In this document: positions 1,553-48,574 of the stretch, in pieces
How the letters are laid out: every line of letters starts with the position of its first letter
How positions within the stretch are numbered: position 1 is the stretch's first letter
IMG/VR virus record: IMGVR_UViG_2734482555_000011
Reading direction: 5' to 3' (one strand)
DNA length: 48,574 bases
DNA from: a virus
Lineage: Duplodnaviria > Heunggongvirae > Uroviricota > Caudoviricetes
Program-made: the position numbers and the translations under genes
Notes under the pieces: generated by a model
What the model was told of the DNA's origin: nothing
The model's input: the letters and a program-made list of their open reading frames with translations, nothing else
Databases searched by the model: none

Positions 1553-1753
1553 TCACGAGGACTGAAGTTTCTCGCAATTAAAATTTATCAGTTTTACTTT
1601 CTGCTCTCTGGAAACGCCTGCTTCTTTTTTACCTGAGAGCATTTTTTCGCATTCTGATTTCGTTAGTTTAGATTTTGAATATCTTGTCCAGTTAGTAGGA
1701 GTGCCACCTTCCTTTTCAATAGTGGCGGTAATTTTATACATGAACACCTCCAT
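1553..1753 (-). CDS. ydaC: YdaC-like small protein
   Basis: Track ORF 1553..1813 (MVEV...MEVFMYKITATIEKEGG...). Position between xis and ralR as in K-12 Rac. Start uncertain: ATG at 1753 or ATG at 1741 preceded by GGAGG. Confidence 0.55.
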   Translation of the reverse strand: MEVFMYKITATIEKEGGTPTNWTRYSKSKLTKSECEKMLSGKKEAGVSREQKVKLINFNCEKLQSS

Positions 1754-1778
1754 TATTATTTCCAGTGGTTCGTTTATT

Positions 1779-1928
1779 TCATCGTTCGAGTGCTTCTTTT
1801 TCACTTCCACCATAACCGGTTCGGGATTCGCATCCGTTACACTTCGCTCGGTAATATCCTGAAATGGCTTTCACCGTTACTGATGGACAACCACAAAATG
1901 GACATGGTTTAACATTGTCATATCTCAT
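1779..1928 (-). pseudogene. ralR: Restriction-alleviation protein RalR/Lar, interrupted by in-frame TGA after codon 49
   Basis: Manual minus-strand translation from ATG at 1926-1928 gives MRYDNVKPCPFCGCPSVTVKAISGYYRAKCNGCESRTGYGGSEKEALER then TGA (plus 1779-1781); the same frame continues NKRTTGNNNGGVHV to TAA at 1734-1736, i.e. 64 codons if the TGA were sense. Not in the ORF track because it is under 60 aa. Confidence 0.6.
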
Positions 1929-1983
1929 AATTTTTCTCATAAAAATATTTCAAGTTGGCGGTGCATTACACCGCCAGGCTGAA

Positions 1984-17590: not shown

Positions 17591-18122
17591 GGGCTGGTTT
17601 ATTGTATGCCAAATGATTATTAAAAAGGTTGTGTTAATAACAAGATCCGAAATAATATGCCTGCATATTTTTATCTTGCTTATATTCTGCATATTGTGCA
17701 TAGCAGGCTCATCCCTGCAATCAAAACTGTATGATGAGTATTTTTTGTTTTCCTTTTTTCCAGTCATCTGATGATGACCTGCTTCTTTTTAATCCGGATC
17801 GACATCAGTTTTTTAAGATAATTCCTGCGAGTTATATGCATAAATGCCACAAACTCCGCATTTTATGTGGTTGGGAGTTGCCGGGCGCGCAGTGAGTTTG
17901 CTAAGAAAACTCCTGCATGGTGAATCCCCCTGTGCGGTGGGGTGATACCATTAACCTTTTCTGTCGCCGACAGGTATCACGAACATTTTGTTCACCGGGA
18001 GGCACCCGGCACCATGCACTTCAATAGATTCTCTCCACATTATGGATATTCTTTCAGAATATCCCACGCAGACTTTGTGTAAATGTTAACAAATGTGCGT
18101 TTTATTTGATCTGATTCGCTGT

Positions 18123-18181: not shown

Positions 18182-18610
18182 ATGGGTTTTCGTAGCGCAT
18201 CAATTCTTACGTTGATTATTAGTGGGATTATTATCGGGTGCACTGATGCTGTATCGACAAATTATCATGACCGTACATCATATTACTCCGATAAAGCAAT
18301 AGAGACACAGTATGTGAGTTCATCTGAACGTACTTCTGATGTTAGTGAGGATATCCGTCTGTATGCCCATCAAATCAAGAGCGCCATCGAAAAACAGTTC
18401 GGGGATGCGAGTAAGTATTCAGGAAAAGAGTGTACACTGAGAATGCATATGGCCCCGAATGGCCTTCTACTGGAGGTTAAAAGAGAAAGTGGAGACCTCG
18501 ATTTATGTCGTGAAGCGATGAATGCGATAAAGAATGCTGATATACCTGCCCCCCCTTCGCCGGAAGTATATAAAGTATTTCAAAATGGGGTGCTGGATTT
18601 TAAACCCTGA
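18182..18610 (+). CDS. Lipoprotein with TolA domain-III-like C-terminus
   Basis: 142 aa; signal peptide with lipobox IIGC then T at +2. C-terminal YAHQIKSAIEKQFGDASKYSGKECTLRMHMAPNGLLLEVKRESGDLDLCREAMNAIKNADIPAPPSPEVYKVFQNGVLDFKP closely resembles the TolA C-terminal domain as I recall it. Confidence 0.7.
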   Translation: MGFRSASILTLIISGIIIGCTDAVSTNYHDRTSYYSDKAIETQYVSSSERTSDVSEDIRLYAHQIKSAIEKQFGDASKYSGKECTLRMHMAPNGLLLEVKRESGDLDLCREAMNAIKNADIPAPPSPEVYKVFQNGVLDFKP

Positions 18611-18760
18611 TATTTATTGTTTTGTAATAAACGGTTTCGGCTTAGGTTTGTTCTGACACAGCTACGGCACTGAGCTAAATTTAGCGGATAGTCAGCTCTG
18701 AGCCAGTGGCGGACGTAACAACTACTATTGCTGAGATTTTAATGGATTGAGGAGCAAGAA

Positions 18761-19156
18761 GTGGGATTAAAGAAAATCGTTATGTTGACTTTTTGGGTCG
18801 GTTTTGTTGCGGGATGCACACCTTTACACCCTTCAGATTGCCACAAAACTACTGCTACAGGTAGTTGCAGTTCAGGACGCTGGGATGATCAGGATGAATG
18901 GGGGGCGCAAGCGCGGGGAATCAGAGCTGCAATTAATGCCAAACTTGATGAGCCGCATAACTGGAAAGGGAAAAAATGCAGGTTGCATATGGAATTCTCT
19001 CAGGATGGCACGGCGTTAAAAATATCTACCAGTAACGGTGATAAAGCCTATTGCGAAGCGATAAAGTCCGCAGCTCATAAAGCCAAATTTCCGGCCTTCA
19101 ACAATCCGGAAGTCTACAGAGATTTTCAGAAATCTGGCTTTGACATGCGAGGTTAG
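18761..19156 (+). CDS. Second lipoprotein with diverged TolA domain-III-like C-terminus
   Basis: 131 aa, GTG start after GAGGAG; lipobox VAGC then T at +2. C-terminal ...KKCRLHMEFSQDGTALKISTSNGDKAYCEAIKSAAHKAKFPAFNNPEVYRDFQKSGFDM shares the spacing pattern of gene 1 and TolA-III. Confidence 0.6.
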   Translation: MGLKKIVMLTFWVGFVAGCTPLHPSDCHKTTATGSCSSGRWDDQDEWGAQARGIRAAINAKLDEPHNWKGKKCRLHMEFSQDGTALKISTSNGDKAYCEAIKSAAHKAKFPAFNNPEVYRDFQKSGFDMRG

Positions 19157-19407
19157 CTCTTCAATTACTATATCTCATTCATAGCAAACTGACAGATTTG
19201 ATGATGTTCTATATACGAAACCTGTGATGTCAAGTCTGAGCTAATACAAATAAACATAATATCAGAGAAATACATTTTATTAGCTCGCTACGGCGAGCTT
19301 TTTATATTGCATCGTCTCCAGCATATATATCAATTAAGGCTCTGATTGATGTGTCTGAAAGCCTACACATAATAACTATGCCATCCGTTCCGTGCGGAGG
19401 TGAGGCT

Positions 19408-30051: not shown

Positions 30052-31191
30052 ATGGCTGGAAATACCCTGACCGGGTTGATCCCGACTATTTATACCGCCC
30101 TGGATGTTGTATCCCGTGAGCAGGTAGGTTTTATCCCTGCGGTAGCAAAAAACGCAAAAGCTGACGCCGCAGCAAAAGATCAGACGGTAACCGCGCCAGT
30201 TGCGCCTGAGGCGAAAACCGAAGATATCGTACCGGGGCCGTCAGCTCCGAATACCGGTGATCAAAATATTGGCACTGTTGATGTAAAAATTACTAAATCC
30301 AAAATGGCACCGGTTAAATGGAATGGTGAAGAACAACTGGCTCTTGGCCCTTCAGGGACTTACAACACCATTCTGGCTGATCAGTTCAAGCAGGCTTTTC
30401 GCGCCCTTGCAAACGAGGTTGAGGCTGATCTTGGTGCGTTGTATTTCGGTGCTTCCCGCGCCGTGGGAACCGCAGGGACAACGCCGTTTGGTGTTAAAGA
30501 TGATCTTTCTGATGCTGCTCTGGCTCGTCAGGTTCTGGAGGATAACGGCGCACCGACAACCGATCTGCAGATGGTGCTTGGCTCCACTGCCATTGCTAAT
30601 TTGCGCGGAAAACAGTCTGTATTGTTTAAAGTGAATGAATCCGGCACTGAACAGCTACTGCGTGAGGGCGTGTTGGGGCGTCTGGAGGGATTCAATATTC
30701 ACAGTTCGGCAGGTGTGAAACGAGCGCCAAAGGTTGCTGCAACTGGTTATCTCGTGAATGGAGAGAAAAAAGAAGGCGATGTTCTTATTTCCATTGATAC
30801 TGGTTCGGGGAGTATTTCTGCAGGTCAGATTGTTACGTTCGCTGGTGATCCGAATCAGTATGTTGTGGCAGCAGCGACCAGCAATCTGATTACTCTTGCA
30901 GCGCCCGGACTGCGTCAGGATCTGGCCGATGATACTGCCATCACAGTTGTTGGGGCCTTTACTGCAAATATGGCGTTTGATCGCAACGCGTTTCTGCTGG
31001 CATCCCGTACTCCGGCAATGCCGGAAGGTGGCGATAATGCTGATGATGTAATGAATGTTACGGACCCGATTTCAGGGATTACGTTCCAGATTGCACTGTA
31101 TCGTCAGTATCGCCAGGTGCGCTATGAAGTTGGACTGGCATGGGGTGTTTCATCAGTGAAGCCGGCACATGGTTGTCTGATTCTTGGTTAA
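30052..31191 (+). CDS. Major capsid protein
   Basis: Track ORF 29959..31191; start MAGNTLTGLIPTIYTAL... after AAGGA; about 379 aa; followed by a strong terminator. Confidence 0.65.
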   Translation: MAGNTLTGLIPTIYTALDVVSREQVGFIPAVAKNAKADAAAKDQTVTAPVAPEAKTEDIVPGPSAPNTGDQNIGTVDVKITKSKMAPVKWNGEEQLALGPSGTYNTILADQFKQAFRALANEVEADLGALYFGASRAVGTAGTTPFGVKDDLSDAALARQVLEDNGAPTTDLQMVLGSTAIANLRGKQSVLFKVNESGTEQLLREGVLGRLEGFNIHSSAGVKRAPKVAATGYLVNGEKKEGDVLISIDTGSGSISAGQIVTFAGDPNQYVVAAATSNLITLAAPGLRQDLADDTAITVVGAFTANMAFDRNAFLLASRTPAMPEGGDNADDVMNVTDPISGITFQIALYRQYRQVRYEVGLAWGVSSVKPAHGCLILG

Positions 31192-48106: not shown

Positions 48107-48574
48107 CCTGCAAACAGTACCGATATTGCACCGCCAGATATTCCGGCTGGTTTCGTGGCTGTTTTCAACAGTGATGAGTCATCGTGGCATCTCGTTGAAG
48201 ATCATCGGGGTAAAACGGTTTATGACGTGGCTTCCGGCGACGCGTTATTTATTTCTGAACTCGGCTCATTACCGGAAAATGTCACCTGGTTATCCCCGGA
48301 AGGGGAGTTTCAGAAGTGGAACGGCACAGCCTGGGTGAAGGATACGGAAGCAGAAAAACTGTTCCGGATCCGGGAGGCGGAAGAAACAAAAAACAGCCTG
48401 ATGCAGGTAGCCAGTGAGCATATAGCGCCGCTTCAGGATGCTGTGGATCTGGAGATCGCAACGGAGAAAGAAACCTTGTTGCTGGAAGCTTGGAAAAAGT
48501 ATCGGGTGTTGCTGAACCGTGTTGATACATCAACTGCACCGGATATTGAATGGCCAGTAGCACCTATAGGGTAA
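48107..48574 (+). CDS. tfa: Tail fibre assembly protein Tfa, 5' end lost in N run
   Basis: Frame after the N block reads [53 protein letters not shown]...[12 protein letters not shown], matching TfaR/TfaQ-type proteins as recalled, whose N-terminus would lie in the N block. Stop at 48572-48574. Confidence 0.8.

Follow-up and report, generated by a model that had tools for sequence, protein, structure and literature searches.

It has been shown that RalR, encoded in the Rac prophage of E. coli K-12 (RALR_ECOLI; NF007260), is the toxin of the RalR/RalA type I toxin-antitoxin pair, that substitutions at its positions 14, 37, 39, 49, 51 and 52 lower toxicity, and that purified RalR K52Q gives no DNA cleavage (Guo et al. 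2014, PMC4041452). The same work describes a 16-nt complementarity between RalA and ralR, 11 nt of it contiguous. RalR belongs to the Lar family (Pfam PF14354, Lar_restr_allev; TIGR03655), which shares a zinc-ribbon CPFCG...C..C core, a beta-hairpin followed by a helix, and an invariant WNxR at the end of the domain. Functionally, RalR and its family are marked by non-specific DNase activity with toxicity when overproduced, or by relief of EcoKI restriction, and the RalR/RalA pair by Hfq-dependent repression of toxin synthesis by RalA. Inactive type I toxins are also known from K-12, among them most hok homologues, in which the toxin is mutated and the antisense or antitoxin RNA region persists (cited in PMC4041452). 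The locus studied here lies in the same place as K-12 ralR, in the order intR-xisR-rcbA-ralR-recT at the ttcA attachment site, but in a complete prophage of 48.5 kb where K-12 retains a 23-kb remnant. Its ralR is identical to that of K-12 at 193 of 195 nt, and residues 1-49, RalA and the 16-nt pairing site are all unchanged, yet its product is 49 aa rather than 64 and lacks W50-N51-K52-R53. The product has the core of the Lar family without its invariant domain end. As with the inactive hok homologues, a mutated toxin stands beside a persisting antitoxin RNA; here, in contrast, one nonsense codon in place of a Trp makes up the lesion, and overlap with the protein-coding gene rcbA places an additional constraint on the antitoxin RNA. 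The closest relative is WP_001443846.1 of O157:H7, O55:H7, O111, O26, O103 and other strains, which is the same allele, with identical protein and identical ralR-rcbA DNA. We consider this allele, W50*, to be very probably a horizontally spread loss-of-function allele of the toxin, a reading that draws on conservation across the family and on the published point mutants of neighbouring residues.

The window, by which we mean the whole 48,574-nt stretch of DNA analysed, comprises an entire Rac-type lambdoid prophage of ~48.5 kb, with intR (1-1236) at one end and tfaR, near 48.4 kb, at the other. On its minus strand, an ATG at 1926-1928 opens 49 sense codons, followed by a TGA at 1779-1781, 14 further codons and a TAA at 1734-1736, and translation of 1734-1928 gives MRYDNVKPCPFCGCPSVTVKAISGYYRAKCNGCESRTGYGGSEKEALER, a stop, NKRTTGNNNGGVHV and a second stop. 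The sequence-only reading of this DNA had given these coordinates and this codon count exactly. The features of the interrupted gene are:

1779..1928, minus strand: truncated ralR (lar) open reading frame, W50*; from translation, with a product identical to RefSeq WP_001443846.1

1779..1781, minus strand: premature TGA, followed by A (UGA-A); K-12 and 1310 complete genomes have TGG (Trp50)

1734..1778, minus strand: residual in-frame ralR tail, codons 51-64 (NKRTTGNNNGGVHV), with the original TAA at 1734-1736; from translation and alignment

In the K-12-type locus used for alignment, ralR has 195 nt and 64 codons, is annotated as the RalR toxin and reads TGG at codon 50, in agreement with the earlier identification of the gene as ralR/lar of the Rac prophage with a 64-aa product in K-12. 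The two differences from the window are a synonymous one at codon 48 (CGA in the window, AGA in K-12) and the TGA for TGG at codon 50. As such, the single G-to-A change proposed from the sequence holds against the nearest TGG haplotype (CGA-TGG, 123 genomes) but not against K-12, from which the window differs twice. With W in place of the stop, the sequence is exactly the catalogued K-12 protein RALR_ECOLI, and these 64 aa reach 166 bits on the NCBIfam RalR equivalog, for which the cutoff is 113; judged by these comparisons, the resemblance is homology, not chance. The tail at 1734-1778 does not differ from that of K-12, and the translation signals of rcbA, its Shine-Dalgarno sequence and start codon, fall on the same stretch. 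Around the start of ralR, the T-run within 1941-1950 (minus strand), immediately upstream of an alternative ATG at 1938-1940, is T5 here and T6 in K-12, and some database entries begin RalR at that upstream ATG (MRKIMRYD..., 68 aa when full-length). Between recT and ralR, at 1957-1975 (minus strand), lies a 7-bp GC-rich hairpin, GGCGGTG-taatg-CACCGCC, whose stem is retained and loop changed in strain L73. It was not called by the terminator scan because the T-run lies 10 nt away; the promoter and terminator scan of the locus returned weak consensus matches only and no terminator.

The TGA is a common state of codon 50. Alleles were typed with a 55-nt query carrying the variable base at position 28, such that every 28-nt megablast seed spans the polymorphism. 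Of 5426 complete E. coli genomes, 310 have the TGA allele, each as a single copy at 100% identity, and 1310 have the TGG allele; of the latter, 123 are otherwise identical (CGA-TGG) and 1187 have the K-12 AGA or other differences. The TGA share is about 1 in 5 of ralR-carrying E. coli genomes; a ralR match of any kind occurs in 1920 genomes, with about 300 ralR-like loci too divergent near codon 50 for 55-mer typing. TGA on the AGA background was not seen among the genomes typed in this way, which points to a single origin on the CGA haplotype, and the ancestral state of codon 50 is given by the Salmonella and Citrobacter homologues and the whole family, all of which have W. Carriers include O157:H7 (among them ATCC 43890, ATCC 43894 and 86-24), O55:H7 RM12579, O111:H8, O26, O103 and many non-STEC strains, as well as three deposited phage genomes, vB_EcoS-666R9, -673R7 and -613R10. 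In RefSeq the product is the 49-aa RalR WP_001443846.1, bearing no pseudogene flag and annotated in NCTC10444, O157:H7, O55:H7, AR_0067, EC09 and E2865, and the exact 49-aa protein is present on at least 1000 contigs of a large protein collection. A literature search for a description of the truncated allele returned nothing relevant. W50* is no artefact: it is a widespread natural allele of a known gene that the databases already list.

The sequence-only reading had entertained a sequencing or assembly error at 1779, with TGG as the true codon. Beyond the prior plausibility of single-base errors nothing favours this, and it is ruled out by the recurrence of this base, always on one haplotype, in 310 complete genomes sequenced independently and in three phage records, and by the first 25 kb of the window, which match E. 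coli NCTC10444, isolated from a calf, at 100% identity; we give such an error essentially no probability. The sequence-only reading also implied a lesion peculiar to this sequence, and its interpretation had been made to depend on K-12 and other Rac ralR alleles not carrying the same TGA. The allele is instead common, horizontally spread and annotated in RefSeq as a 49-aa protein, and other Rac alleles do carry the TGA where K-12 has TGG. This makes the allele a polymorphism only, and does not show that the gene is intact.

In NCTC10444 the prophage sits between ttcA and sitABCD. The left arm is ordered intR, xisR, rcbA (DUF1187), ralR, recT, recE, racC, ydaE, kilR and sieB, and is followed by immunity, replication and lysis genes, trkG, and then terminase, portal, capsid and tail genes up to tfaR, the capsid genes being of P22 type. 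Only 123 genomes share at least 80% of the window's first 25 kb, and the intR-xisR-rcbA-ralR-recT module with W50* is shared by many E. coli lineages, whether the prophage is complete or decayed. Across five TGA genomes, ralR and rcbA have 0 differences from the window's source strain, while at the same loci the neighbouring core genes ttcA and dbpA differ at up to 26 of 936 and up to 30 of 1134 sites and intR at 0-43. In O55:H7 RM12579 the TGA module is joined to a different, longer recE, with a DUF1482 gene and dicB upstream, and in EC09 to an IS1-truncated recE and a frameshifted recT. Identical ralR-rcbA sequences between diverged flanks and variable right-hand parts indicate that the allele moves horizontally within a mosaic left-arm module. 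Elsewhere in the prophage, we note Rfam matches above the gathering score to the sRNA STnc100 (17885-18071, plus strand, 86.6 bits) and, at the extreme right end, to IS009 (48336-48534, plus strand, 218 bits). Just upstream of the lysis genes, at 18351-19157 (from 30351-31157 of locus L004), the prophage contains a TolA-like pseudogene fragment together with a gene encoding a TolA C-terminal-domain protein.

The effect of the stop on the protein can be judged against the family. At E <= 1e-3, a 64-aa RalR has 1690 relatives among the 1.8 billion representative proteins searched, and alignments to distant ones mostly reach residues 52-57. In a phmmer alignment of 213 domains, from 144 distant representatives among the best, W50 is present in all 213, N51 in 204 and R53 in 182 of the 199 that cover it, on a par with or above the zinc-ligand cysteines across the Lar family (C9 213, C12 213, C30 204 and C33 211 of 213); an independent MAFFT alignment of 58 single-domain members gave the same invariant set. 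The 49-aa product keeps all four zinc-ribbon cysteines, C9, C12, C30 and C33, and lacks the W50-N51-x-R53 motif, which is encoded only past the stop. Against Pfam PF14354 it scores 39.0 bits (cutoff 28.6) compared with 53.5 for the full-length protein, a loss of 14.5 bits, and leaves profile positions 53-58 of 58 unmatched; it scores 126.9 bits against the NCBIfam equivalog NF007260 (cutoff 113) and 40.3 against TIGR03655 (cutoff 39.6). An AlphaFold2 model (mean pLDDT 77.7) places a beta-hairpin at residues 17-30 and a C-terminal helix at 43-54; this predicted helix is interrupted by the stop, and its second half is missing from the 49-aa peptide. No solved Lar-family structure on which to place W50 was found by sequence or fold search: a PDB sequence search gave no relative and chance matches to CbpD only, and with Foldseek the model had no PDB match at E <= 0.001, those nearest to it being Elf1/ELOF1-type and Pol III C11-type zinc ribbons. 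Residues 51 and 52, at which published substitutions lower toxicity, are also missing, and the full-length 64-aa toxin open reading frame that characterises the RalR/RalA system is interrupted here by the in-frame TGA at codon 50.

From the conservation of W50, N51 and R53, the lost Pfam positions, the cut helix and the mutants at residues 51 and 52, we infer loss of function. Of the earlier suggestion that ralR is inactivated or truncated, truncation follows directly from translation, and inactivation is supported by family conservation and the neighbouring point mutants. Other independent lesions of ralR in nature, including frameshifts, W50S and deletions fusing ralR to rcbA, suggest that loss of RalR is tolerated. 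There is a counterpoint in the profile matches themselves, as the 49-aa product passes the PF14354 and NF007260 cutoffs and retains its four cysteines. It might on these grounds be proposed that the 49-aa zinc-ribbon fragment, with its CxxC...CxxC ligands and beta-hairpin, is itself functional as a shorter isoform, for example by binding DNA or a type I restriction enzyme, and its frequency and unflagged RefSeq entry would fit such a role. However, W50, N51 and R53 vary no more across the family than the zinc ligands do, distant family members usually align as far as residues 52-57, and mutations at 49, 51 and 52 already lower toxicity, with K52Q abolishing DNA cleavage (PMC4041452), and we regard a functional fragment as very unlikely. 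A functional allele of any kind would give the pattern observed, being frequent and widely spread with its 14 downstream codons unchanged in the carriers examined. However, these 14 post-stop codons overlap the translation signals of rcbA, and, with zero differences among carriers, overall divergence is too low for their constancy to speak for selection.

On the loss-of-function reading, translation would end at the UGA and release a 49-aa peptide expected to lack the DNase and toxin activity of RalR and probably Lar-type restriction alleviation as well; the ralR/RalA locus would then be a type I toxin-antitoxin pair with a dead toxin, and W50* a tolerated or neutral loss-of-function polymorphism travelling with the prophage module. 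This sequence of events would be modified if the allele were leaky. In that case Trp-tRNA(Trp) would rarely read UGA-A and a little wild-type 64-aa RalR would be made beside the 49-aa peptide, tuning the toxin or anti-restriction dosage down rather than abolishing it. UGA read-through is a competition between Trp-tRNA(Trp) and RF2, and a K-12 reporter puts it at ~2% at 37 C and ~4% at 25 C (PMC10570021). UGA followed by A is a comparatively weak stop, the binding of RF2 to UGAA is relatively weak (PMC5373646), and the amino acid brought in by the near-cognate tRNA is the wild-type Trp itself. Past the stop, the frame runs on through the 14 original codons and no others, which do not vary among the carriers examined, and W50* is both common and mobile. 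However, the K-12 read-through figures reflect the reduced-function RF2 of K-12, and with B-type RF2 no read-through product was detected at native UGA stops, among them the UGAA of pheL (PMC5373646). Nor was a downstream stimulator found, as no stem-loop is present in the 29 nt 3' of the UGA, which are predicted to be unpaired, and the 60-nt fold of -6.2 kcal/mol equals that of shuffled sequences (mean -6.23, z = 0.01). The host, moreover, is not K-12. Wild strains carry a fully active form of RF2 (prfB). The tail owes its conservation to the rcbA Shine-Dalgarno sequence and start codon that it overlaps, and to very low overall divergence, and, with RalA already repressing ralR, a further cut of at least 50-fold would probably have no phenotype. 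Read-through of UGA-A is probably negligible in non-K-12 hosts, and we think a leaky, attenuated allele unlikely. The stronger form of this argument, that W50* is not null and that selection has kept it, in the mobile module, spread over E. coli phylogroups, of a complete Rac-type phage, as a dosage-attenuated allele giving low-level wild-type RalR, with a read-through level that would vary with growth state, with temperature and from cell to cell, strikes us as quite unlikely. An in-frame UGA with an open frame beyond it could also be programmed as selenocysteine. This candidate was rejected, as there is no SECIS-like hairpin and the residue ancestrally in this position is an invariant Trp rather than Cys or Sec, and its probability is vanishingly small. 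Loss of function remains our preferred reading of the stop, and the toxin of W50* strains is most likely dead.

A search for RalA near the gene, as suggested by the sequence-only reading, placed it adjoining ralR. The features of this region are:

1557..1735, plus strand: RalA antitoxin sRNA, full length at 179 nt; Rfam RF02694, model positions 1-179

1791..1806, minus strand: RalA-pairing site in ralR, 16 nt (AAGTGAAAAAGAAGCA, codons 41-46); from a direct scan

1619..1634, plus strand: RalA element complementary to ralR mRNA, 16 nt (RalA positions 63-78); from a direct scan

1553..1741, minus strand: rcbA/ydaC (DUF1187), 62 aa; Pfam PF06688, 132 bits; RefSeq WP_001302840.1

RalA scores 225.1 bits against the RF02694 gathering score of 170 and is 100% identical to K-12 over 1557-1735, with an exact match in the K-12 locus. 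Its gene is convergent with ralR and antisense within the rcbA coding sequence. The RalA and ralR elements match at 14 of 16 positions, 11 of them contiguous, and the RalA element begins 62 nt from the RalA 5' end, in agreement with the primer-extension mapping in PMC4041452. The pairing site at 1791-1806 is intact and ends 10 nt upstream of the TGA. An inverted-repeat search for this pairing site found nothing because, RalA being antisense to rcbA, the site is a direct repeat in the DNA. The antisense position of RalA within rcbA also means that its conservation is no proof of a working toxin-antitoxin pair, and an unchanged RalA beside a dead toxin suggests retention by the overlapping rcbA gene or other roles of the RNA. 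Two database proteins are further observations at these repeats. P0012 (67 aa) joins RalR residues 1-46 to the RcbA C-terminus, the outcome expected from a deletion between the 16-nt direct repeats at 1791-1806 and 1619-1634, and another ralR::rcbA fusion, P0015 (96 aa), has its junction at a short repeat nearby. The pairing element appears also to be a deletion hotspot, at which the toxin C-terminus and part of RalA are removed.

For rcbA itself little change would be expected. Its ATG at 1739-1741 overlaps the original ralR stop (ATGTATAA), with a Shine-Dalgarno GGAGG at 1747-1751, five bases upstream, and the new TGA lies 37 nt upstream of the ATG. It is likely that rcbA is still translated from its own strong Shine-Dalgarno sequence, without termination-reinitiation coupling to ralR, and loss of that coupling would be the sole expected effect. 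The gene ends here at a TGA at 1553-1555 to give 62 aa, where K-12 reads AGA and continues to 69 aa. The 62-aa RcbA fits the DUF1187 profile from end to end (1-61 of 61) and is the form in every non-K-12 locus examined, from which it follows that K-12 is the unusual one. The rcbA frame is also open upstream to an ATG at 1811-1813, giving an 86-aa open reading frame (1553-1813, minus strand) that overlaps the 3' third of ralR in another frame and that is open in K-12 too, in an alignment judged by eye.

The labelling of the 49-aa product as RalR endodeoxyribonuclease toxin in RefSeq and in phage records is an issue of annotation hygiene. By such labels, a working RalR/RalA pair would be ascribed to about one fifth of the E. 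coli that carry ralR, O157:H7 and the major non-O157 STEC among them, when the toxin in these strains is most likely dead. It is therefore worth checking codon 50 before extrapolating to other strains the RalR/RalA or Lar phenotypes of K-12, those concerned being fosfomycin response, restriction alleviation and prophage stabilisation.
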